Source: Candidatus Moraniibacteriota bacterium
Lineage (GTDB): Bacteria; Patescibacteriota; Minisyncoccia; Moranbacterales; UBA1568
Assembly (NCBI GenBank): GCA_016699425.1
Contig: CP064975.1
Location: forward strand, 66,979 to 130,978
Length of the DNA stretch: 64,000 nucleotides
Reading direction: 5' to 3'
Part shown: piece after piece, positions 1,495-14,059 of the stretch
Position numbering within the stretch: position 1 is the stretch's first letter
Layout: every line of letters starts with the position of its first letter
Notes under the pieces: model-generated
The model's input: only the letters and a program-made list of their open reading frames with translations
Databases searched by the model: none
Told to the model about the DNA's origin: nothing
Made by a program: the position numbers and the translations under genes

Positions 1495-3438
1495 ATGTCG
1501 CTTACCGAAGTAAACGAAGAGCTTCACCGTCGCAGCCGCGAGGCTGATCCGACGCTGCCTGGAGATGCTGATTTCCAGCCGAAATCGATTCTTCCTGAAT
1601 CAACGGACGTGCCGCCCCCCGTGGTGCCTTTGGGTGATGCTTGGGGAGGGGAAGAGACGCGCAATGTACCGGTCGCTCCCGGGATGAAATTTAACAATCC
1701 TCTCGGTCACCTGCCGCGAAAAGCCGCACTACTCTTGGGTGGCATCGCCCTCACTCTCATCGCTGCGGGGGTTATCTTCAAGGTAAGCGGGTGGCTCTTC
1801 GTCCCGGAACGCGTCATTGTGAGTATCACAGGCCCGAAGCGCTCCGAAAGCAATGATCCGGTCGAGTACGTGATCCGCTATGAGAACAATAACTGGGTCG
1901 ATCTCGATGAAGCCGAACTCATCATCACGTATCCGGAATTCTTCCGCTTTGCATCCACCGATGGATTTCAGATGAGCGCGACTCGGGCCGTGCTCCCGCT
2001 CGGGACGGTGAAGAAGTCCAGTCAAAACAGCGTCACGATCAAGGGCTCCTTCCAATCATTGCAGGACCAGGTTGCGCTCTTCACAGCGACCTTGCGCGCG
2101 GCGCCGAAGGGCGTGTCGAGCCGTATCGATACGGAGTTTCAATACAGTGTTGCCGTAGAGAGCTCGGCCGTCGTCGTGGAGCTCTCGGCTCCGCAGCAGG
2201 CAGGGGACAATCAATTCGCAGACTACGTCGCGACGTATCGCAATGAGAGTGTTGAGACCATCAGTAATCTCGAGCTCGTCGTCGAGTATCCAGCTGGTTT
2301 CACATATCGCGAATCAGATCCGGCTCCCTCGCGAGCAGAGAATATCTGGCGTCTCCCGACGCTCGCACCGGGAGCCTCGGGCACAGTGACAATCCGGGGT
2401 GTGCTGACGGGACTCCAGGGCGATGTAAAGCGTGTCTGGGCCAGAGTCGGAGTACCACAAGGGGATGGTTCGCTCCTGTCTTATGCCGAGATCGAACGAC
2501 AGACTCGTATCGTGGCCTCGCCCCTCGTCATTTTTCAGAAGATTGGTGAGCATGAAGAAAAACAGGTCGTCGAACCAGGCGAGTCTCTAGCGTATCGGAT
2601 TGTATTTCGGAACGATGGTGATGTCGGACTTCGCGATCTCATCGTCACCGTCGATATCGACCCGAAGTACTTCGATGTGAACAAGATTCAGTTGAACGAA
2701 GGTGGAGGGGCCTACAACATCGCCAAACAGCAGATTGTGTTCCGAGCGGCCGATCGGGCGGTCCTCTCGCACATCGAGCCGGGTCAAAGTGGCGAAATCA
2801 CCTTCACCGTTCCGGTGCGATCGGATTTTGCCGCGTCGGGCAGGAGCAATGTGGAGATCGAATCGATCGCGCGGATTGACAGTCCGGATGTTCCGACCCC
2901 GATCGGGGCGAACAAAGTTATCGCAAGCAATCGGATCGCATTCAAGGTCAAAACAGCGCCAGTCTTCGAGCTGCTCGGATTCCATTTTGATGAGCATGGG
3001 AATACTGGTCCAGTCCCGCCGATTGTCGGTCAAGAGACAACATACACGCTGAATCTCCGCGTGGCGAGCACGCTGAATGCGCTGGAGGATGCACGAGTAG
3101 TCTTGTCTGTGCCCGGTCAGGTGCGTTACTTGAAGACCTATACGAATGGACAGGGGTCAGTCATTTACAATGATCGGACCGGTGAGATTTTCTGGAATCT
3201 GGGGACCATGGCACCGGGAGTTGGCAAGACTATCGGTTTGTCAATTCAAATCGGTTTTACACCCGACCCGAGCCAGGTTGGGACTGAAGCGAGGATTGTG
3301 AATTCGGCTGTGCTCACCGGCAAAGATATCTGGAGTGGGGCAATGGTGCAGAGTACTCTCCCAGCCAAACTCATGAATCCTATGGAGGATACTCATTTGA
3401 TAGATGAGCTGAAGTCCGGCGTGAGAGCAGCGCAGTAG
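1495..3438 (+). CDS. membrane-anchored protein with four DUF11/CARDB-like beta-sandwich repeats
   Basis: A single TM helix (AALLLGGIALTLIAAGVIF) is followed by four ~120 aa repeats, each with a Y(P/E)xxF(R/T)Y motif; function unknown. Confidence 0.6.
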   Translation: MSLTEVNEELHRRSREADPTLPGDADFQPKSILPESTDVPPPVVPLGDAWGGEETRNVPVAPGMKFNNPLGHLPRKAALLLGGIALTLIAAGVIFKVSGWLFVPERVIVSITGPKRSESNDPVEYVIRYENNNWVDLDEAELIITYPEFFRFASTDGFQMSATRAVLPLGTVKKSSQNSVTIKGSFQSLQDQVALFTATLRAAPKGVSSRIDTEFQYSVAVESSAVVVELSAPQQAGDNQFADYVATYRNESVETISNLELVVEYPAGFTYRESDPAPSRAENIWRLPTLAPGASGTVTIRGVLTGLQGDVKRVWARVGVPQGDGSLLSYAEIERQTRIVASPLVIFQKIGEHEEKQVVEPGESLAYRIVFRNDGDVGLRDLIVTVDIDPKYFDVNKIQLNEGGGAYNIAKQQIVFRAADRAVLSHIEPGQSGEITFTVPVRSDFAASGRSNVEIESIARIDSPDVPTPIGANKVIASNRIAFKVKTAPVFELLGFHFDEHGNTGPVPPIVGQETTYTLNLRVASTLNALEDARVVLSVPGQVRYLKTYTNGQGSVIYNDRTGEIFWNLGTMAPGVGKTIGLSIQIGFTPDPSQVGTEARIVNSAVLTGKDIWSGAMVQSTLPAKLMNPMEDTHLIDELKSGVRAAQ

Positions 3439-3459: not shown

Positions 3460-4569
3460 ATGGATACAGCGGTAAAGAGAAAGCACATACTCGTCACGAG
3501 AAACGGCGCCGTCCAGACGCCGGTTTTCATGCCGATCGCGACCCGTGGCACAGTGAAGCATCTTACGACAGACGACCTTCACATGCTCGGGGCGGAGATC
3601 GTCCTCGGCAATACCTATCACCTATGGCTACGGCCAGGTGATGATCTAATCGCGCGCGCGGGTGATCTCCATCAATTCATGTGCTGGGGCAGGTCGATTC
3701 TCACAGACTCGGGCGGTTTCCAGGTGTTTTCCTTGGGGGCGCGGGCTGGTGAGCGCTTTGGGAAAAGCGGTGTGAAACTTTCGGAGGAGGGGGTGGAGTT
3801 TCAGGATCCGACGAATGGCAACACCTATTTCCTTTCGCCAGAAAAGTCGATCGATATCCAGCTCAATCTCGGCTCAGATATCATCATGGTCCTCGACGAG
3901 TGTCCGCCGTATCCGTGCACACGCGAGTATGCGCTCGCTTCGCTTGAGCGGACGACGCGTTGGGCGGCGCGAGCTAAGGCACATTTCGAAAAGCGCATTG
4001 TCGAACTCGACCTCACAGAAAACCGGCCGCTTCTTTTTGGTATCGTCCAGGGTTCCACGTATCCGAAACTCCGCGAACAATCGGTACGTGAACTGACAGC
4101 GATCGGATTTGATGGCTATGCGATCGGCGGAGTCGCAGTTGGTGAACCGCGTGAGAGCCTATCAGATATCCTAGCAGCAACTCTTCCACATCTTCCAGCG
4201 AACAAACCGCGCTACCTCATGGGACTTGGCCGCCCGGAGGAAATCGTCATGGCGGTCAGGGCCGGGGTCGATATGTTTGACTGCGTCATCCCGACACGTG
4301 AGGGACGGCACGGGCGACTTTTTTACCGGACGGGGAAGACCCTGGATACCATCGGTAGTTTTTATCAGACGGAGAATCTGACGAGCGAAGCCTTTCGCGA
4401 AGATTTCTCACCGATCGATGCCGACAGTCCGATCCCGCTCCTCCGGGAATATTCCAAAAGCTATCTCCGTCATCAGTTTGCGGCGGCCGAACCGCTCGCC
4501 GGCCGCCTCGCGACCCTGCACAATCTCGCCTTCTATCTCGGGCTCATGCGAGAGCTTCGCGAAGAGTAG
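3460..4569 (+). CDS. tgt: queuine tRNA-ribosyltransferase
   Basis: TGT hallmarks are present: LTDSGGFQVFSLG, the DCVIPTR catalytic Asp region, and LGLMRELR at the C-terminus. Confidence 0.9.
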   Translation: MDTAVKRKHILVTRNGAVQTPVFMPIATRGTVKHLTTDDLHMLGAEIVLGNTYHLWLRPGDDLIARAGDLHQFMCWGRSILTDSGGFQVFSLGARAGERFGKSGVKLSEEGVEFQDPTNGNTYFLSPEKSIDIQLNLGSDIIMVLDECPPYPCTREYALASLERTTRWAARAKAHFEKRIVELDLTENRPLLFGIVQGSTYPKLREQSVRELTAIGFDGYAIGGVAVGEPRESLSDILAATLPHLPANKPRYLMGLGRPEEIVMAVRAGVDMFDCVIPTREGRHGRLFYRTGKTLDTIGSFYQTENLTSEAFREDFSPIDADSPIPLLREYSKSYLRHQFAAAEPLAGRLATLHNLAFYLGLMRELREE

Positions 4570-4651
4570 GGACTCGCTATTTTTTCAAGATAAAAAAAAC
4601 GGCGCGGAGCAGGATGCTGCTTCGCGCTTGGTTAAGAATCGATGGCATCAA

Positions 4652-5008
4652 TCAGTCGGATGGGTATGTCTGAGGGATCCAACGCCCGATGTTGCGAGCG
4701 AGCCCTTTCATGACTATGACGAGCCGAACGTCTTGGTGGAATGCAGGATGGTCTTGGCTTGTGTATTCGGCCGCTCGATTCTTCAGCCTCCGGGATCGTT
4801 GATGAGCAGTCGCGGTGAGTTGTGTCGAGAGGCTGCGCCAATCGCGGCGTTCGAAGAGAACTTGTAGGTGGTCGAGTCCTTGCACACCGAAGAGGTTGAG
4901 ATACATGATGGTCCGGACTTCTGAGAGTGTGGCGGTATTGCCAGCGCGATTCAGGAAATTGACAGCCTGGTTAAGTGTGCGGAGTTGTTCGGGGAAGGTC
5001 TCTGTCAT
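4652..5008 (-). CDS. hypothetical protein
   Basis: The ORF-track ORF 4652..5194 was trimmed to an internal ATG (MTETFPEQL) preceded by a GGAG motif; no recognizable domain; it is the only minus-strand ORF in a + strand block. Confidence 0.3.
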   Translation of the reverse strand: MTETFPEQLRTLNQAVNFLNRAGNTATLSEVRTIMYLNLFGVQGLDHLQVLFERRDWRSLSTQLTATAHQRSRRLKNRAAEYTSQDHPAFHQDVRLVIVMKGLARNIGRWIPQTYPSD

Positions 5009-5138
5009 GGAGTGCTCCAGTGGGTTGGATCGGTTGATGGATGGAGTGAATGTTGATATATTCACTATGGTAAAGAATCTGCTGAATATAGGGAAAAAGC
5101 GCTTTTTTGTCAACCTTGGAAGAGAGGGAATGTAAAGA

Positions 5139-6581
5139 ATGATTATGACGGAAAAACAAGACGGTCTGATGGACAAGATCATCTCGCTCGCCAAGCGACG
5201 CGGCTTCGTGTTTCCGTCGTCGGAAATCTACGGCGGTTTTGCAGCGGTGTATGACTTCGGCCCGTATGGTGTCGAACTGGCCAAAAACATCCGCGAGGCC
5301 TGGTGGAAAGCGATGGTCCGCGATCACGACAATATCGTGGGGCTCGACAGTGCCATCTTCATGCATCCGAAAGTCTGGGAGGCATCGGGGCATGTCGGCG
5401 GATTTAGCGATCCACTTGCGGAATGCAAAGAGTGTCACACACGTGTTCGAGTTGATCATCTCCTTGAAGCGGTCGATGTCTTTGCTGATGAAAAGATGAC
5501 CGAAGCGGAGATCAATGCGCTTTTCACAGAAAACAAGGAAAAAGTGAAATGCCCGAAATGTGGCAAGAGTAATTTCACCGAGGCGAAGAGCTTCAATCTC
5601 CTCGTCAAATCAAACTTAGGAAACTTTACTGAGAGCTGGACCAAAGAGCCTGCCCGAGACGCTTCGCAGAGCGATGCGGGCGGGCCGACCTACCTCCGGG
5701 GTGAGACGTGTCAGGGGATCTATGTGAATTTCAAGAACGTCCTCGATTCGTCGCGGGTGAAGGTGCCATTCGGTATCGCACAGATTGGCAAAGCCTTTCG
5801 CAATGAGATCACCGCCCGCCAGTTCATCTTCCGCAAGCGCGAATTTGAACAGATGGAAATGCAGTACTTCATCCGGCCGGAAGAGGCGGCGACGGTGTAT
5901 GAAGAGTGGCGCGCCAAGCGTTTCCAGTACTATATCGATCTCGGCATCAAACCAGAGAACCTCCGTTGGCACCAGCATGAGAATCTGGTCTTCTATGCCA
6001 AGGCGGCTTGGGATATCGAGTACAATTTCCCCTTTGGCTTCAAGGAGCTTGAAGGTGTGCATAATCGGAGCGATTATGATCTGACCCAGCACTCGAAATT
6101 CTCGGGTGTCGATCTCTCATATCGCGACCCGGTGACGAATGAAAAATACATCCCATGGATCGTGGAGACGTCCGTCGGCCTCGAGCGCACCTTTCTGGCC
6201 GTCTTGACCGACGCTTATTCTGAAGAGAAGATCACTGAAGACGATACACGCATTGTGCTGAAACTCCCGAAACAGCTTGCCCCGGTACAAGTGGCGGTCT
6301 TCCCACTCATGAAGAATAAGCCGGAACTAGTGAACAAGGCACGCGAAGTGTATCAGAAGCTCAAAAAAGATTTCCGCTCGGAGTTCGATGACAATGGCAA
6401 TGTCGGCAAGCGCTATCGCCGCCAGGACGAGATCGGCACGCCGTACTGCGTCACGGTCGACTTCGACACCCTCGGCGAGAATCCGGACCTGGCTGGCACC
6501 GTCACCGTCCGTGATCGCGACAGCATGCAGCAGGAGCGGGTGAAGATAGAAGAGCTCAAGACATATCTATCAAGGGATTAA
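5139..6581 (+). CDS. glyQS: glycine--tRNA ligase (dimeric, archaeal/eukaryotic-type)
   Basis: Class II motifs and full-length similarity to GlyQS-type GlyRS (FVFPSSEIYGG, FRNEITARQFIFRKREFEQMEMQYF, anticodon-binding C-terminus). Confidence 0.9.
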   Translation: MIMTEKQDGLMDKIISLAKRRGFVFPSSEIYGGFAAVYDFGPYGVELAKNIREAWWKAMVRDHDNIVGLDSAIFMHPKVWEASGHVGGFSDPLAECKECHTRVRVDHLLEAVDVFADEKMTEAEINALFTENKEKVKCPKCGKSNFTEAKSFNLLVKSNLGNFTESWTKEPARDASQSDAGGPTYLRGETCQGIYVNFKNVLDSSRVKVPFGIAQIGKAFRNEITARQFIFRKREFEQMEMQYFIRPEEAATVYEEWRAKRFQYYIDLGIKPENLRWHQHENLVFYAKAAWDIEYNFPFGFKELEGVHNRSDYDLTQHSKFSGVDLSYRDPVTNEKYIPWIVETSVGLERTFLAVLTDAYSEEKITEDDTRIVLKLPKQLAPVQVAVFPLMKNKPELVNKAREVYQKLKKDFRSEFDDNGNVGKRYRRQDEIGTPYCVTVDFDTLGENPDLAGTVTVRDRDSMQQERVKIEELKTYLSRD

Positions 6582-6590
6582 TATAATGTT

Positions 6591-6914
6591 ATGCCGATAG
6601 TCCGTGTCGATTTTGATCAGGAGAAAGTAAATCCAGCGGATGCTCGGGCCCTCTCGGAAGCAATTCAGAAGATCGTGGCCGAAGTGACAGAAATCGAGGA
6701 TGTCATCGTGTATGCGAATGATTCGCAAATAAAAGTGAAAGCCTGGCCAGTAGAAGTTTTTGTCCAGATGAACGTAAGTCTTATCAAGGAGGAGGATAAG
6801 TTATTTGAATCATTGAAGTCGCGTATCATCGCCTGGAAGAAAGAAAGTAATTTCCCGCACCCGATCAATCTGACATTTATCCCGATGAAGTGGCGGATCG
6901 AGGTAGGACTGTAA
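6591..6914 (+). CDS. hypothetical protein, possibly tautomerase-superfamily (N-terminal Met-Pro)
   Basis: Starts MPIVRVDF, like the catalytic Pro1 of 4-oxalocrotonate tautomerase/DUF1904 proteins; the beta-alpha-beta size fits; low GC. Confidence 0.4.
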   Translation: MPIVRVDFDQEKVNPADARALSEAIQKIVAEVTEIEDVIVYANDSQIKVKAWPVEVFVQMNVSLIKEEDKLFESLKSRIIAWKKESNFPHPINLTFIPMKWRIEVGL

Positions 6915-6945
6915 CCTGAGATGATCAAATAAAGAGTAAATACGT

Positions 6946-7647
6946 ATGAGTATGTATAATCCTGAAAAAAAACAACCAGTATCTTCCCCATCCGAATCCG
7001 ATGAGCTTGAAATCGATTTGGGTACGGCAGACAAAAAAAGAGAGGGAAACGAGATCACTTTGACAGCAGGCAATACTAGCGAGTCGCTGTCTGCATCTCC
7101 TATTGATCCAGCAATTGTTGCTAGCGAGGCTGCAAATGATAGGCAAGAGAGTGGCGAGAACGCAGAGAAATTGATTTCAGCCATCAAATCAGGCGCATCC
7201 GGTGGAAAGTTGAAAGAGTTTGTAGCAGCACTCGCTGTTGGAACGGCGCTGGCTGTTGATGCTACTGCTGCCCAAGCAGAACCAGTTCCGAGTACTCTCG
7301 AGAAGATACAAACGCCCGATACGCAGGAGCAGCGAGGGTGGAAAGAAAAACCATTTTCTGGCAGCGTCGAACATCCAACACTGGGGAAAATCTCAATTGA
7401 GCTACAGGCCGTCCGGCGCTCCGACGGGTCCTTTGCTGCGGAGCAGTGTACTGCGAAAATCAATGGGAAAGACCGCAAGGTTTTGGGGGCATTGCAGTCA
7501 AGGGCGAAGAATGCGCCGGCCATGAGCTACATCATCGAGGGGGAGAAACCTGGCGCGATGGACTATATCCGTTTACATATTGATGGTAGTAGATACACCA
7601 CAAAAGATGAGGGAGGGAATGAACTCGTTTTGCCAATTACTGAGTAA
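6946..7647 (+). CDS. hypothetical protein (low-complexity acidic N-terminus)
   Basis: Long ORF in a lower-GC segment with no recognizable domain. Confidence 0.45.
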   Translation: MSMYNPEKKQPVSSPSESDELEIDLGTADKKREGNEITLTAGNTSESLSASPIDPAIVASEAANDRQESGENAEKLISAIKSGASGGKLKEFVAALAVGTALAVDATAAQAEPVPSTLEKIQTPDTQEQRGWKEKPFSGSVEHPTLGKISIELQAVRRSDGSFAAEQCTAKINGKDRKVLGALQSRAKNAPAMSYIIEGEKPGAMDYIRLHIDGSRYTTKDEGGNELVLPITE

Positions 7648-7650
7648 CTG

Positions 7651-7687
7651 TATGAACTACAAGAAACACACGTTGAAGAATGGGTGA
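7651..7687 (+). repeat. direct repeat copy 1 (duplicated 5' end of the M16 peptidase gene: ATGAACTACAAGAAACACAC(G/T)TTGAAGAATGGGT)
   Basis: 36/37 nt identical to 8159..8195; this copy encodes MNYKKHTLKNG followed by a stop. Confidence 0.8.
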
Positions 7688-7738
7688 AGACTGAGGAGTT
7701 GAGTCATCAGCTGCGACGGTAACCATTGCTTATTAATA

Positions 7739-8023
7739 ATGTATATGGAACAACAAGACCAATCTTCAGAAACGAATGAAACTTCTATGGGGACGGATAA
7801 CATAGAGGCTGATGCTGGAGAGAAGAAGATACAATATCGACCAACGGTAGTGCTTATTGCCTTGATTCCCATTTGTATTTTTGGACTATTCTGTTCAATA
7901 CTAGTTGGTGCTGGTGTTGGTGCACATCTTATGTCTGATTTCCTTATCGTCCTTGGTTTACCGGTTTTGGTTATGTCTATAGGTATTGTGGTCATCGGTC
8001 ATTTGTGGGGTCGAGCTCGTTGA
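7739..8023 (+). CDS. small two-TM membrane protein (in low-GC insert)
   Basis: 94 aa with two hydrophobic helices; lies in the ~470 bp ~40% GC segment bounded by the 37-bp direct repeats. Confidence 0.4.
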   Translation: MYMEQQDQSSETNETSMGTDNIEADAGEKKIQYRPTVVLIALIPICIFGLFCSILVGAGVGAHLMSDFLIVLGLPVLVMSIGIVVIGHLWGRAR

Positions 8024-8158
8024 ATATCTATGAAGGTTCGGTTTCTGATCTTAATGGGGATGGTGGTATTAATGCTTAGCCATCCTCGAGCTACATAGTT
8101 GTTGACTACCGTATACAAAGCAGCCTCCTAATTAATTACGCTTTACTTCTGGCATTAG

Positions 8159-8195
8159 TATGAACTACAAGAAACACACTTTGAAGAATGGGTTG
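8159..8195 (+). repeat. direct repeat copy 2 (authentic start of M16 peptidase gene)
   Basis: Matches 7651..7687. Confidence 0.8.
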
Positions 8196-9428
8196 CGCAT
8201 CATCCTCGCACCGATGCAGGACACGCAGACGGCGACGGTCTTCATCATGACGGGGGTGGGGAGTCGCTATGAGACACGTGCCGAAAATGGCCTGGCACAC
8301 TTCCTCGAGCACATGTTTTTCAAGGGGACGAAGAAGCGGCCGAATGCGATCGATATCTCCAAAGAGCTCGATGAGCTCGGTGCGGAATACAATGCGTACA
8401 CGGGCAAGGACCGGACGGCGTACTATGCCAAGGTTGAAGCGCGGCATTGGGACACGGCGCTCGATATCGTCTCGGACCTGTTCCTGAATGCCAAGATCGA
8501 ACAAGAAGAGATCGACCGCGAGAAGGGCGCGATCCTTCAAGAGCTCAACATGTACGAGGATACGCCGATGCGTCACATCAATGACTTGTGGGAGTCGCAT
8601 CTGTACGGCGATACCCCCTTGGGCTGGGAAATCATCGGGACCAAGGAGAACCTCCATGCATTCCGCCGGGCTGACTTCATCAAGTATCTCGCGCGCGGCT
8701 ACGTGGCGGAAAACGTCGTTGTCGGTGTCGCGGGCAATATCGATCCGAAGCAAGTGCTCGCGGCGGTCAAGCAGCATTTTGCCACCATCCGTACTGGGAA
8801 AAAACCGACGTTCAAAAAATTGAAAGACCAGCAGTCGAAGCCGGGGGTCTTCATCCAGAACAAAAAGACGGATCAGACCCACCTCCTCCTCGGGGTGCGA
8901 ACGTATCCGATGGGGCATCCGGACCGGTATGCGCTCTCGGTCCTCGCGACGGTCCTCGGTGGTGGGATGTCATCGCGACTGTTCCTCTCAGTTCGGGAGC
9001 GGCGCGGACTCGCCTATCGGGTCACGACGAGCAGCGACAGTTATCACGATGTCGGTTATCTCACGACTCAAAGCGGAGTGGAACATCAGAACTTGGATGA
9101 GACAGTGAAAGTCATCCTGACTGAGTATCGTCGGATCGCCGATGAACAAGTTGGCGATGAAGAATTGAAGAAAGCCAAAGAACACATGAAGGGACAGATG
9201 GCGCTCGGGTTTGAAGGATCAGACGATATCATCGAATACCTGGTCACTCAGGAAACGCTCAAGGGTGAAATCAAGTTACCGCAGGAGATCGCCAAGAAAA
9301 TCGATCAGGTGACGGCCAAGGATGTGCTCCGTGTCGCGAAAGATATCTTTCGAAACAAGAAACTCAACCTTGCGGTCATTGGACCGAAAGCCGACAAGAA
9401 GAAACTCGAGAAACTGGTGAGGCTGTAA
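8160..9428 (+). CDS. M16 family zinc peptidase (insulinase-like)
   Basis: Inverted zinc motif HFLEHMFFKGT (HxxEH) and the M16 N- and C-domain architecture. Confidence 0.9.
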   Translation: MNYKKHTLKNGLRIILAPMQDTQTATVFIMTGVGSRYETRAENGLAHFLEHMFFKGTKKRPNAIDISKELDELGAEYNAYTGKDRTAYYAKVEARHWDTALDIVSDLFLNAKIEQEEIDREKGAILQELNMYEDTPMRHINDLWESHLYGDTPLGWEIIGTKENLHAFRRADFIKYLARGYVAENVVVGVAGNIDPKQVLAAVKQHFATIRTGKKPTFKKLKDQQSKPGVFIQNKKTDQTHLLLGVRTYPMGHPDRYALSVLATVLGGGMSSRLFLSVRERRGLAYRVTTSSDSYHDVGYLTTQSGVEHQNLDETVKVILTEYRRIADEQVGDEELKKAKEHMKGQMALGFEGSDDIIEYLVTQETLKGEIKLPQEIAKKIDQVTAKDVLRVAKDIFRNKKLNLAVIGPKADKKKLEKLVRL

Positions 9429-9450
9429 GTGTTTAAGTGGAGACGCGCGT

Positions 9451-10452
9451 ATGTTCGAATCGATAAACACGAATAAAATCAAAGGTACCGCCGGTAGCAT
9501 AGAGCTTCCAAATCAAGGAGGCAGAAACGTGACACCGGAAAGTCTGTGCAAGCAGCAATTTCCGACAGTGAAGCCTGAAAATCAGGCGGGAGAAGACACG
9601 GAGAGGATTCAGGCGTTGCTGGCGGGACTCTCTCGTCCGGAGTTTCTGTCTTTGGAATCGCCAGAAGGTACTCAACGAAGAAATGAACAAGAACAAACAT
9701 TGCGGTTGCTGTTCGAGAGGTTGAGTACAGAGAATCCTATTCGAAAAGCGGAAAGAAAGGTATCCATCGGAACGGGGCGGGACAAAATATTTGAAGGTGA
9801 GAAACTTGTTCAAACCAGAGACTTCGCTGTAGGTAGTGAACAGCCACTTATGGTCAGAGAGGAAGAGTTTGTGGTAGATGGAGAAACACATACACGGGTC
9901 GCCTTATGCAGCCAAACTGGTGAAAAGCTGTATGTTGATAACTTACTCCCTGAGGGAGTCCAGTTTCGCCCAGGTATCACTGGGCAAGGCGAGGAGACAG
10001 AGAGGTATTTTCAGTATGGTAACCCAGAGAGAGGCCATAAGGAGCACGTTGTGTACTATGGGGATATCGATACGCCGGAAGGGGTGTATGCATTGTTTCA
10101 TGAGGTTGGTCATGCTTGGAACGATGCAGCAGGACTTCCTTCCGGTCCGGACGGCATGACAGTACGGGCGACATTTGGAAGGCTGGCTGACAAGATCTTC
10201 AAGACTCATTTTGAAAGAAATGATGCTGAAGCTCAGATGCTCGAAGAGAGGGACGCGAGTGCACACGCGCTGCGTGCTCTGCGCGCCCTCCGTGATGCGG
10301 GGTACCCACTACAGGAAGCGACTTCAGCCCGGGTAGGTGATTATATCCAGGAATGTCTGAAAACATATCAAGATTCAGATGAAGAGTTTGGGAATACCGA
10401 ACGACTGAAACCGCGGAGGAGCTTCGTCTCAGGTCGGAGGAAACAGCTGTAA
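9451..10452 (+). CDS. hypothetical protein with HExxH metallopeptidase-like motif
   Basis: ALFHEVGHAWND is present; no signal peptide; otherwise an orphan. Confidence 0.55.
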   Translation: MFESINTNKIKGTAGSIELPNQGGRNVTPESLCKQQFPTVKPENQAGEDTERIQALLAGLSRPEFLSLESPEGTQRRNEQEQTLRLLFERLSTENPIRKAERKVSIGTGRDKIFEGEKLVQTRDFAVGSEQPLMVREEEFVVDGETHTRVALCSQTGEKLYVDNLLPEGVQFRPGITGQGEETERYFQYGNPERGHKEHVVYYGDIDTPEGVYALFHEVGHAWNDAAGLPSGPDGMTVRATFGRLADKIFKTHFERNDAEAQMLEERDASAHALRALRALRDAGYPLQEATSARVGDYIQECLKTYQDSDEEFGNTERLKPRRSFVSGRRKQL

Positions 10453-10459
10453 CTCGCGT

Positions 10460-11143
10460 ATGGATGAAGACATGAAAGGGACGCTCTACGTCGTCGGAAC
10501 ACCGATCGGGAATCTCGGTGATATCACGCTGCGGGCGATCGAGACACTCAAGTCTGTGGATTTCGTCTTGGCGGAAGATACGCGCGTGACGAAAAAGCTC
10601 CTATTGAAGTATGAGATCGCGGTCTCGGTGTATTCGGCGCACGAACACACCGAGGTGAAGAAGCTGGAATCATTCCTCGGGCGAATCGAAGACGGCGAGA
10701 GTGCTGCGGTCGTCACTGATGCTGGGACGCCGGGGCTATCGGATCCGGGGAATGTGCTCGTGTCGCTTGCGATCGCTCGGGGTATCGCAGTCGTGCCCAT
10801 CCCGGGCGTGTCCGCGCTCGCGGCACTCGTCTCGGTCGCCGGGATTGATATGCGGGAATTCGTCTTCCTCGGTTTCCCACCGCACAAGAAAGGACGCGAG
10901 ACGTATTTCAAACGGGTGGCGGCGAGCGAGGTTCCGGTCATATACTATGAGTCACCGCATCGGTTCATGAAGAATCTGGAACTGCTCCAGTCACTTGCGC
11001 CAGAAAAGCGCCTCATCATCGGCCGTGAGCTGACAAAAGTGTATGAGGAAATCGTCCGGGGAAACGTGGCCGAGGTGATCGCTTATTTTGCCGAGCGGCC
11101 AGCAAAAGTAAAGGGGGAGTTTACCATCATCGCTTACGCTTGA
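10460..11143 (+). CDS. rsmI: 16S rRNA (cytidine1402-2'-O)-methyltransferase
   Basis: LYVVGTPIGNLGDITLRAIETLKSVDFVLAEDTR is the typical RsmI/tetrapyrrole-methylase-fold N-terminus. Confidence 0.9.
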   Translation: MDEDMKGTLYVVGTPIGNLGDITLRAIETLKSVDFVLAEDTRVTKKLLLKYEIAVSVYSAHEHTEVKKLESFLGRIEDGESAAVVTDAGTPGLSDPGNVLVSLAIARGIAVVPIPGVSALAALVSVAGIDMREFVFLGFPPHKKGRETYFKRVAASEVPVIYYESPHRFMKNLELLQSLAPEKRLIIGRELTKVYEEIVRGNVAEVIAYFAERPAKVKGEFTIIAYA

Positions 11144-11499
11144 AGCCTATGGACCTGATCAACAAAAAATGTGTACCGTGCGAAGGGGGAGTAGATCCGC
11201 TCTCTTCGGAAGTGATTGCTACGTACCTAGCGGTCGTGGAGGGGTGGACGAATGAAGCCGACAAGAAGATTCATAAGGATTATGTTTTCAAGGATTTTGC
11301 GGAAGCGCTCACCTTCGTCAATCAGGTCGGCGCTATCGCCGAAGCAGAGGGGCATCACCCGGATATTTTGCTTCACGGCTGGAAGGAAGTAAGACTCACG
11401 CTTTTCACCCATGCCATCCAGGGACTCCACCTGAACGACTTCGTGCTCGCATCCAAGATCGACGCGATGTGGAAAAAGGACTTCGAAAAGAGTGTATAA
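11140..11499 (+). CDS. pterin-4a-carbinolamine dehydratase (PCD/DCoH)
   Basis: EGHHPD active-site motif and the right size; the start overlaps the rsmI stop (ATGA). Confidence 0.85.
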   Translation: MKPMDLINKKCVPCEGGVDPLSSEVIATYLAVVEGWTNEADKKIHKDYVFKDFAEALTFVNQVGAIAEAEGHHPDILLHGWKEVRLTLFTHAIQGLHLNDFVLASKIDAMWKKDFEKSV

Positions 11500-11527
11500 A
11501 AGGGTGTGATCGGTCGGTGGAAAGTTT

Positions 11528-11559
11528 CGAAGCCCGAGTACGCAATGCGTATCGGGCTT
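11528..11559 (+). terminator. strong hairpin (near-perfect 15-bp stem) downstream of PCD gene
   Basis: GAAGCCCGAGTACGCAATGCGTATCGGGCTTC; no T-run follows, so intrinsic-terminator status is uncertain. Confidence 0.35.
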
Positions 11560-11918
11560 CGGGTTGTGGGACGACAGTCGACTACTTCCTCGGGCCGAGG
11601 ACGGCGTTCGCGAGACCGTCATTTGCCAAAGTGCAGCTCCCACCAGTGCTGCAATCAATGGACAGTAGCAGGTAGAAACTGCCCACTACGATTGCGACCC
11701 CCAGGGTGACGAACAATGTCCCCCCGTGGTCGTACCAGAACATCCTGATACGACGATATTTGATACCATGGTATCGCATTCTACACCCCTTGTGAGTTGC
11801 TAGCCGTTCAGCTAGCTGGTTGGAAATAACAACAAACCATACCAGTATACATCATAGTGACCGGAAAGTCAAGGATGCTATACTGAAAGGGTCTGAATAA
11901 GCCATTTATTGCCTCAGG

Positions 11919-12329
11919 ATGCAATTTTATCTCGCAGTAAAAGGGATTGTCCGGAATGCAGCAGGAGAAATCCTCGTTGTGAAGCGCAGTGACCAGGATG
12001 ATCATCTGCCTGGTGTCTGGGAGACCGTCGGCGGGGGCGTCGACCATGAAGAGACGCCACAGCAAGCGCTCGAGCGGGAAATCATGGAAGAAGCGGGTAT
12101 CAAGGTTAGGATAAGCGAGCCCTTCAATGTCTTCACGTTTCGCAAGGATACCGGCGAGTTCAAGGTCGGGATCACCTTCCTCTGCGACACTGATGACACG
12201 GTGGTCACGCTCTCCGAAGAGCATAGTGAATACCGGTGGATCCGGCCGTCAACATTTAAGGACCTGGAATCAATCCCGTCGCTCTATCAAGAAATCGCTC
12301 TCTACGCACAAAAATATGCCGGGAAGTGA
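11919..12329 (+). CDS. NUDIX hydrolase
   Basis: Nudix box GGGVDHEETPQQALEREIMEEAGI (Gx5Ex7REUxEExGU). Confidence 0.85.
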   Translation: MQFYLAVKGIVRNAAGEILVVKRSDQDDHLPGVWETVGGGVDHEETPQQALEREIMEEAGIKVRISEPFNVFTFRKDTGEFKVGITFLCDTDDTVVTLSEEHSEYRWIRPSTFKDLESIPSLYQEIALYAQKYAGK

Positions 12330-12603
12330 AAGTTCAAGCAGCTTCCATTATGTCTATGTGTTGAGAAATATAGCGAAGAAATTTGTTTATGTTGGTGTGA
12401 CGAGTGACTTAAGGCGTCGATTGACAGAACATAATGAAAGCAAGGTGTTTTCGACAAAGCCATACGTACCTCTGAAGCTGATATACTATGAAGCATGTTG
12501 CGAAGGAAAGGATGCGTTGCGTCGTGAAAAGTATCTCAAAACCAGTCAAGGTGCTCGCTTATTGAGAAGGCGCCTGAAAGAATATTTCTACAATAATACT
12601 TGA
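12317..12603 (+). CDS. GIY-YIG domain nuclease family protein
   Basis: YVYVLRN...FVYVGVTSDLRRRLTEHN is the canonical GIY-YIG motif; the start was set to ATG at 12317 inside ORF 12127..12603, overlapping the Nudix stop by 13 nt. Confidence 0.75.
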
Positions 12604-12619
12604 ACTTCTACTTCCCGGT

Positions 12620-14059
12620 ATGCCCAAGCCATTTTTCATCACTACCGCCATTGATTATGTGAATGCGGCACCCCATGTCGGGCATGCCGTGGAGAAAGTG
12701 CTGACCGATGTTGTAGCGCGCTATCAAGTGCTCCAACGCGGAAAAGAGGATGTGTATTTCCTCACGGGTTCGGACGAGAACAGTCTGAAGAATGTCCAAG
12801 CAGCTGAGCGAGTGGGGCGACCAGTTGCGGAGTTTGTCGCAGAGAATGCCGAGAGTTTCAAGGCACTCGCTGGTTCGCTCGATCTCTCCTTTGACCAGTT
12901 TATTCGCACAACTGAACCGCGGCATTTTGAGGGGGCGAAAAAAATGTGGAATGCGTTCAAGAAAGAAGATTTATATTTGAAGAAGTACAGTGGCCTCTAC
13001 TGTGTCGGCTGCGAAGAATTCAAAATGGAGAAGGATCTCGTTGACGGTCTCTGTCCCGATCATAAGGTTGCGCCGGAAGTAGTAGAGGAAGAGAATTGGT
13101 TTTTCAAGCTCTCAAACTACGCTGATAGATTGCTTGCACTGATTGAGAGTGGTGAACTGAAGATCTATCCCGATTATCGGAAGAACGAAGTCGTATCGTT
13201 CATCAAGATGGGACTGGAGGATTTCTCGATCTCGCGTTCGGTCGCGCGGGCTAAAGGCTGGGGCGTCCCGGTGCCGGGTGACGAGAGTCAGATCATGTAT
13301 GTGTGGGTGGATGCCCTGTCCAACTACATCACGGCGCTCGATTATGCGACAGATGGCGAACTGTACAAAAAATTCTGGACGAGTGATTCCGAGCGCGTGC
13401 ATGTCATCGGCAAAGGCATCCTCCGTTTCCATGCGATCTATTGGCCAGCGATGCTCCTGTCGGCCGGACTGCCGCTCCCGACGACGATCTATGCCCACGA
13501 GTACCTGACGATCAATGGGCAAAAGATGTCGAAGACGCTCGGTAACGTCATCTATCCCGACGAGCTCGTGGAGAAATTCGGCGTCGACGGGACGCGCTAC
13601 CTCCTCCTCACCGCGTTGCCGTACTCAAAAGATGGCGATTTGTCCTGGGAGAAAATGACCGAGAAGTATAATGCCGACCTGGCGAATGGTCTCGGCAATC
13701 TTGTCTCGCGCGTGATGAAGCTTTCTGAGAAGCTCGAGGTTTCTTTTTCTGTAGAAGATGATTTCGGAACGAAAGAAACATCGGATCTTCTTGAAGAATT
13801 TCGAGTGGCTGATGCGTTGGCGCATATCTGGACTTATATTGCCGTCCTTAACCGTTCAATAGATGAGAATAAGCCCTGGGAACTCGTTAAGACTGATTAC
13901 AAAAAGTTTGAGAGTAATCATCTCGTTTTGATGCAGGAAATCTACAAGATAGCAGTATTGCTCAGGCCATTCCTCCCATCAACATCAGAAAAAATTGAAA
14001 CTGCACTCAAGACGGGGAAAGTTGAACCGTTGTTTCAGCGGATCAAGACTGAAAAATGA
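12620..14059 (+). CDS. metG: methionine--tRNA ligase (short form)
   Basis: HIGH motif (HVGHA), KMSKS motif (QKMSKT), Cys knuckle CVGCEEF...CPDH, and the ENWFFKLS motif. Confidence 0.9.
   Translation: MPKPFFITTAIDYVNAAPHVGHAVEKVLTDVVARYQVLQRGKEDVYFLTGSDENSLKNVQAAERVGRPVAEFVAENAESFKALAGSLDLSFDQFIRTTEPRHFEGAKKMWNAFKKEDLYLKKYSGLYCVGCEEFKMEKDLVDGLCPDHKVAPEVVEEENWFFKLSNYADRLLALIESGELKIYPDYRKNEVVSFIKMGLEDFSISRSVARAKGWGVPVPGDESQIMYVWVDALSNYITALDYATDGELYKKFWTSDSERVHVIGKGILRFHAIYWPAMLLSAGLPLPTTIYAHEYLTINGQKMSKTLGNVIYPDELVEKFGVDGTRYLLLTALPYSKDGDLSWEKMTEKYNADLANGLGNLVSRVMKLSEKLEVSFSVEDDFGTKETSDLLEEFRVADALAHIWTYIAVLNRSIDENKPWELVKTDYKKFESNHLVLMQEIYKIAVLLRPFLPSTSEKIETALKTGKVEPLFQRIKTEK

Follow-up and report, generated by a model that had tools for sequence, protein, structure and literature searches.

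We analyzed a 36-nt direct repeat that encloses a small insert of low guanine plus cytosine (GC) content between glyS and the gene of an M16 peptidase (M16) in a Candidatus Moraniibacteriota metagenome-assembled genome (MAG). The genome data comprised one 64-kb stretch of this MAG, which we call the window and to which all within-genome counts refer. We think it probable, at roughly 60%, that the repeat is a scar of illegitimate, homology-anchored recombination which placed two alleles of the glyS-M16 gap in tandem. The evidence comes from the junction itself, where a stub of the M16 start meets a stub of the glyS end, and from the variability of the gap among relatives.

The comparison set consisted of 108 related loci, coded L001, L003, L081, L086 etc., in which glyS lies directly 5' of M16 on the same strand. 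The M16 protein search retrieved genomes of Candidatus Moraniibacteriota and of other Patescibacteria (Candidate Phyla Radiation, CPR). In the window, all features from glyS to M16 lie on the + strand.

The repeat and the two gene-end stubs

Repeat search identified two direct copies, GTATGAACTACAAGAAACAC-AC[G/T]TTGAAGAATGGGT, at 7650-7685 and 8158-8193, which were identical at 35/36 positions and whose starts were 508 nt apart. A pattern search of the 64 kb with up to 3 mismatches returned those two sites alone, and there were 0 matches in 100 dinucleotide-preserving shuffles. The 36-nt repeat is therefore real and not a chance match. An earlier sequence-only reading had placed it at 7651 and 8159 with 36 of 37 nt shared; the direct repeat exists, but these positions were off by 1 nt and the identity is 35/36.

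The repeat takes in the GT before the ATG and nt 1-34 of the M16 gene. Its downstream copy (8158-8193) is the true start of M16 (8160-9428; Pfam Peptidase_M16 and Peptidase_M16_C), an insulinase-family peptidase gene that forms the conserved right flank. The upstream copy is a stub of that start, read as 11 codons at 7652-7687 (MNYKKHTLKNG, then a stop), exactly as the sequence-only reading had it. The stub peptide is a by-product. The M16-start stub was identical at 33/34 positions to the M16 start of the window and at 32/34 to that of L001, the M16 protein of which is just 75% identical to that of the window. Among the occupied gaps that were scanned, the M16-start duplicate was unique to the window.

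Immediately after the M16 stub we observed a second truncated gene end. The conserved left flank, glyS (5139-6581; Pfam HGTP_anticodon and tRNA-synt_2b), encodes a class II glycyl-tRNA synthetase (GlyRS) and ends with the tail ...ERVKIEELKTYLSRD and a stop. The repeat search paired 7682-7698 with the glyS end at 6538-6554. In the glyS frame, 7684-7722 reads VKTEELSHQLRR followed by a stop; the frame is open and the stop comes after 12 codons, which is a natural tail length. The GlyRS tails of relatives read ...ERVKIEEL, followed by 6-9 amino acids (aa) and the stop. We aligned 7676-7750 locally with 105 glyS tails and obtained a best score of 29 (16/17 identical to L003; 21/26 to L081), while 299 random window segments gave a mean of 19.5 (standard deviation 2.4, maximum 28; 0/299 reached 29). 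Further, the 17-nt tail block of eight close relatives was scanned exhaustively against all 128,000 window positions. Matches of at least 15/17 were found at two sites only, the true glyS tail and 7682, and a match of 16/17 at 7682 alone. Chance is very unlikely to have put the single best additional glyS-tail match precisely where the M16 stub ends. These comparisons show 7682-7722, which begins GGGTGAAGACTGAGGAG..., to be a remnant of a glyS 3' end, as judged from nucleotide similarity. Since this remnant abuts the M16 stub, the locus is organized as glyS / orf107, orf233 / M16 stub + glyS stub / orf94 / M16.

Homology to M16 stops at 7685 and homology to glyS starts at 7682. The two overlap by 4 nt, GGGT (7682-7685), read from M16 ...AATGGGTTGCG versus glyS ...GCGGGTGAAGA, and this microhomology would be the illegitimate joint. 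The stop codon of the glyS stub and a short spacer (7720-7746), TAACCATTGC...GTATATG, resemble the junction between glyS and the next gene of L081, TAACCATGCGTATATG, although this resemblance is suggestive only. The start of orf94 falls where the next gene of L081 begins.

A simple tandem duplication predicts that both ends are equally similar to the resident copies. We observed instead 30/45 identical positions between the glyS stub and the resident tail and 35/36 in the M16 repeat (Fisher p = 5e-4). Because of this inequality, the glyS stub would come from another allele, and a single-step duplication within one genome is ruled out.

Contents and variability of the glyS-M16 gap

The insert between the repeat copies was 472 bp long (7686-8157) and had 41.1% GC, compared with 55.0% for the window and 54.3% for M16, which agrees with its earlier description as a low-GC insert of about 470 bp. 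The only sense-strand open reading frame (ORF) of at least 30 aa in it was orf94 (7739-8023), the cargo of the second cassette. Residues 31-92 of the 94-aa product are hydrophobic and, by hydropathy, compatible with two transmembrane (TM) helices, so the product is, as proposed before, a putative small two-TM membrane protein. The non-coding spacer between orf94 and M16 (8024-8157) had no Rfam match at E <= 1 and no terminator-like site. Upstream of the stubs, orf233 (6946-7647) occupies what would have been the orf107-M16 spacer and stops 4 nt 5' of the M16-start stub.

Both orf94 and orf233 are orphans: each matched only itself among 5.8 billion proteins, and neither belongs to a Pfam, NCBIfam or PHROG family. 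The exact orf233 protein was also found on 2 Logan contigs. Logan assemblies hold exact orf107 and orf233 and not orf94; this absence is uninformative, as the longest contig has 1505 bp. The metagenome scan with orf94 as the query revealed no relative, and none was found in viral contigs. Likewise, other copies of the insert or of its membrane protein, which an earlier suggestion of a mobile cassette would lead one to look for, were found neither in the window nor among the 5.8 billion proteins, JGI metagenome contigs, viral contigs, phages and plasmids. The insert ends (7686..., ...8157) had no terminal inverted repeats pairing them, and there was no transposase or integrase in the insert or in the immediately adjacent genes. 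The insert carries no mobility machinery of its own.

As a separate observation, the gene right after the glyS tail or tail stub encoded a small multi-TM protein in four genomes (window 7739-8023; L003 7299-7715; L001 3079-3705; L086 2627-3031). We detected no homology of orf94 to the gap membrane proteins of L003, L001 and L086, and the four show no detectable similarity to one another.

The third ORF of the gap, orf107 (6591-6914), was different. It had 40 homologs, nearly all of 107 aa and 46-83% identical, and was syntenic between glyS and M16 across several CPR lineages. The order glyS-orf107-M16 was present in L081, L082 and L171; orf107 lay 35 bp 5' of M16 in L170, and L086 and L172 had extra genes between glyS and orf107. 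The AlphaFold model of orf107, built from a 38-sequence alignment (predicted local distance difference test score, pLDDT, 92), resembled in Foldseek the tautomerase superfamily (cis-CaaD, MIF, 4-OT; E about 1e-5), and the N-terminal proline (Pro2) was invariant in the family. No Pfam or NCBIfam family covers orf107. We are confident in the assignment of orf107 to the tautomerase superfamily as a model-based prediction. Despite its GC content of 45%, orf107 is a conserved native resident of the glyS-M16 gap and not an orphan. The count of three orphan ORFs in the sequence-only reading thus holds for orf233 and orf94, and the mis-call of orf107 is corrected here to a conserved tautomerase-fold family native to the gap. 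Since orf107 homologs hold the same position, the ancestral state of the clade would be glyS-orf107-(35-50 bp)-M16. The window proteins of this region are IPJ68_00340, IPJ68_00345 and IPJ68_00350.

We observed that the glyS-M16 gap varied from -25 bp to more than 5 kb among the 108 loci. It was at most 120 bp long, often with overlapping genes, in 51 loci, 121-500 bp in 12, 501-1500 bp in 26 and more than 1500 bp in 19. Empty gaps of 13-97 bp were found in L002, L004, L005 and L008; these are the empty sites expected under the earlier suggestion, and the overall pattern is that of a hotspot. The contents of occupied gaps were unrelated among relatives: L003 had a gene for a four-TM protein of 138 aa, L001 one for a protein of 202 aa, L009 and L010 Bro-N-like genes, and L081 orf107 alone. 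The GC content of close relatives was 0.34-0.48 in gaps versus 0.48-0.56 in flanks. The name low-GC accessory segment, given earlier to this region, therefore needs correction in two respects, as orf107 is a conserved resident and low GC is general to gap contents in close relatives. In the nearest relative, L003, the gap was an unrelated 443 bp, and homology to the window broke at the glyS end and resumed exactly at 8159. The glyS-M16 gap is a variable hotspot rather than a site of presence or absence of one element.

A second scar was found in L086, an independent short-read Logan contig from another sample. It has a 65-nt duplicate of the glyS tail (2549-2613 vs 3160-3224; 55/65 identical, with the first 26 nt identical) in which frame and stop are kept (TMVQERIAIADLQNYFVEHLK, then a stop), and this duplicate borders an insert of 546 bp, in which a single ORF encodes a multi-TM protein of 134 aa. 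We looked for an M16-start stub beside the L086 glyS stub and did not find one. Gene-end stubs were thus present in 2/58 occupied gaps, namely in the window and, among 57 occupied related gaps, in L086. Apparent glyS-tail matches in L057 and L131 were rejected as low-complexity.

There were also signs of active recombination nearby. The M16 peptidases of the window and L003 were 98% identical in amino acids. Across tgt-glyS and again past 13.9 kb, the nucleotide identity of the two was 79-86%, but between these regions a stretch that starts near 8,230 (around nt 76 of M16) and runs to near 12,100 was nearly identical in both, and 9559-10758 contained not one mismatch. This tract of about 4 kb (L003 coordinates 7800-11670) includes the M16 body, orf333, rsmI and the gene of a pterin dehydratase. 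As near-identity starts at about nt 76 of M16, the exchange tract ends within the first 75 nt of the gene. This pattern of sequence identity indicates a recent exchange between the window and L003 lineages.

Where the near-identical tract ends on the right, just before metG, we noted a small free-standing GIY-YIG nuclease gene (about 12319-12603; Pfam E = 3.6e-16), and L003 had no homology across window 12318-13516. Three other loci, L086, L029 and L122, also had GIY-YIG genes between glyS and M16, so that 3/8 GIY-YIG sites of all loci lay in gap DNA, which makes up 4% of the total. We do not rely on this enrichment, as the cases are too few and the comparison is confounded, gaps being accessory DNA.

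The insert has glyS, orf107, orf233, M16, orf333 and rsmI as neighbours, and the order tgt-glyS-M16-...-rsmI is kept among relatives. Rfam gave no match within 4500-8300, either at gathering thresholds or at E <= 1, and there was no tRNA nearby. Promoter and terminator scans of the locus performed no better than shuffles. The tgt-glyS spacer (4570-5138, 570 bp) contained no convincing sense-strand gene and no Rfam match, had a strong G-over-C skew of up to +0.43, and showed no homology to L003 over 4630-5032. Between M16 and rsmI lies orf333 (9451-10452), which has no Pfam, NCBIfam or PHROGs family and is 100% identical in L003; its position holds other genes in other relatives, e.g. 23S_rRNA_IVP-family genes in L081 and L086. 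Finally, the GlyRS of L004 (8650-9969), L005, L006, L009 and L010 were just 46-60% identical to that of the window, while the neighbours in L004 were much closer to the window than its GlyRS (tgt 85%, rsmI 80%). These identities suggest whole-gene replacement of glyS in some lineages.

Origin of the repeat

The junction could have arisen from two parental versions of the gap. Parent A would have been glyS-orf107-orf233-M16, with the signature ...CCAATTACTGAGTAACTGTATGAACTAC... running into an intact M16, and parent B would have been glyS-orf94-M16, with the signature GAGGAGTTGAGTCATCAGCTGCGACGGTAACCATTGC preceded by a full-length glyS. The joint would link nt 34 of an M16 start to the final 41 nt of a glyS gene through the 4-nt GGGT. 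The product would be glyS(A) - orf107 - orf233 - (M16 stub / glyS stub) - orf94 - M16, with each tandem version of the gap keeping a piece of the conserved gene that once flanked it. The likeliest route may be homology-facilitated illegitimate recombination (HFIR), in which one flank (glyS and upstream, or M16 and downstream) would be anchored by homologous recombination and the other end of the incoming DNA would be joined at the microhomology; we infer the direction of transfer and the enzymology. Conserved genes lie on both sides of the site and recombination tracts end there, and either flank could be the anchor. Unequal crossing-over of co-resident copies, or integration of an excised circle via the 36-bp homology, would be equivalent routes with an identical product. 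Of the two names proposed earlier for the repeat, target-site duplication or recombination scar, the latter is the one we keep, as the duplicated gene boundary marks a junction made by recombination.

Several points weigh against this reading. The collections searched contained neither parent: glyS-orf94-M16 was absent, and so was orf233 directly followed by an intact M16. The metagenome scan with M16 as the query gave nothing closer than 77%. As the M16 start is nucleotide-conserved among relatives (78-92%), the 35/36 identity of the copies neither dates the event nor reveals the donor copy. The assignment of the glyS stub rests on 41 nt. In a search with a broad protein hidden Markov model (HMM) of 99 GlyRS tails, the stub did not stand out (rank 9, E = 14); this test has little power, because the glyS tail is short and variable, and we therefore placed weight on the nucleotide tests against close relatives. 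A 4-nt microhomology is expected by chance at about 1.5% of random junctions, so GGGT is supportive and not proof. Moreover, an assembly artefact would suit the origin of the sequence from a MAG, the differences in gap content among relatives and the lack of orf94 in the Logan assemblies that hold exact orf107 and orf233. A chimeric long read, or strain variation that was not fully collapsed, would then have set the gap cassettes of two co-existing strains one after the other. We regard such an artefact as quite unlikely. With 4 nt shared, the joint is far too short for an assembler to connect sequences by overlap or k-mers. Randomly placed ends of chimeric reads would hardly fall, as both breakpoints do, no more than about 40 nt from the cassette edges, and a comparable stub occurs in L086. 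The absence of orf94 from Logan is accounted for by the contigs of at most 1505 bp.

Two events within one genome might also produce this arrangement: the gap would have been tandem-duplicated by slippage at GGGT, and the left copy (glyS and cassette) would then have been replaced from another allele. A tandem duplication of the gap is expected to leave a gene-start stub fused to a gene-end stub, as seen here, and allele replacement clearly occurs at the locus. Nevertheless, we consider this sequence of events unlikely. It is less economical, with two events where one suffices, and the second event requires a crossover within or beyond the 36-bp stub; the two cassettes have nothing in common, and the glyS stub matches the resident tail far less well than the two M16 starts match each other.

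The sequence-only reading had also suggested a target-site scar left by a small mobile cassette, and this was not borne out. A transposon, insertion sequence or miniature inverted-repeat transposable element would show terminal inverted repeats, multiple copies in its own or related genomes, and a short target duplication, and none of these was observed in the 64-kb window or the collections searched. Target duplications made by transposases are typically 2-15 bp long, and 36 bp is far longer. There is no recombinase, and the insert has a glyS tail at its left end. A miniature or remnant site-specific integrative element, with the repeats as attL and attR, the M16 start rebuilt on integration and the integrase acting in trans, seems to us very improbable, the least probable of the alternatives. 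Such elements typically have low-GC cargo enclosed by direct repeats in which a gene end is duplicated, and a shared core of the attL/attR type is present at both junctions (35/36), but this feature is not specific to them. No integrase or transposase is encoded in the insert or adjacent genes, terminal inverted repeats are lacking, no second copy was found in any collection searched and no other relative has the M16-start duplicate. The left end of the insert is moreover a glyS tail of the same locus rather than DNA foreign to the target.

Stacking of two gap alleles by illegitimate recombination, as we prefer to read the locus, would make it one of the uncommon natural cases in which both breakpoints of such an event can still be read. 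The two stubs would reveal how an uncultured CPR bacterium with a reduced genome gained an orphan membrane-protein gene without a mobile element. The glyS-M16 junction is a recurrent site of gene turnover in the group, which bears on the spread of orphan genes in CPR genomes. The locus is also a caution that not every gene-boundary duplication is an attachment site. It is a highly doubtful but conceivable extension that the glyS-M16 junction of Moraniibacteriota and related CPR serves as a dedicated cassette-exchange site, with the conserved gene ends (the glyS tail and the first ~36 nt of M16) as handles. If this were true, unrelated small membrane-protein genes would be swapped there and sometimes stacked into arrays, the 36-bp repeats would allow the orf94 cassette to pop out, and breaks made by the free-standing GIY-YIG nucleases of some gaps might drive the swapping. 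The site would then be an integron-like generator of diversity without an integrase.

Comparison with known systems

In PMC6382021, HFIR is described in natural transformation of Acinetobacter baylyi, Streptococcus pneumoniae and Pseudomonas stutzeri, with illegitimate joints at 3-10 bp of microhomology; the primary reports are de Vries & Wackernagel 2002, Prudhomme et al. 2002 and Meier & Wackernagel 2003 (via PMC6382021). As in HFIR, heterologous DNA would lie here beside a conserved homologous anchor, there is no mobile-element machinery, and the 4-nt GGGT is within the reported range of joints. Unlike in the HFIR experiments, the present case is deduced from a natural genome, and uptake and RecA dependence would apply by analogy. 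It also differs in that the heterologous DNA would be an alternative allele of the same locus, so that gene-end stubs mark the joint.

The locus shares with phage or integrative and conjugative element (ICE) integration the direct repeats at a gene boundary, the intact gene and the lower-GC DNA between them. It differs from such elements in having no recombinase, a cargo of 472 bp, a single copy and one end that is chromosomal glyS.

Replacement-type flexible genomic islands are integration hotspots between conserved core genes. The glyS-M16 gap resembles them in its conserved flanks, its unrelated, lower-GC, lineage-specific genes and its empty sites. Unlike them, it is of very small scale (single small ORFs, 0-5 kb), and here two alternatives would have been stacked and not exchanged, with the junction preserved. 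In summary, the event and the locus are both of known kinds and do not constitute a new kind of system; what is unusual here is that both gene-end stubs are intact at the junction, and that they are found in a CPR genome.

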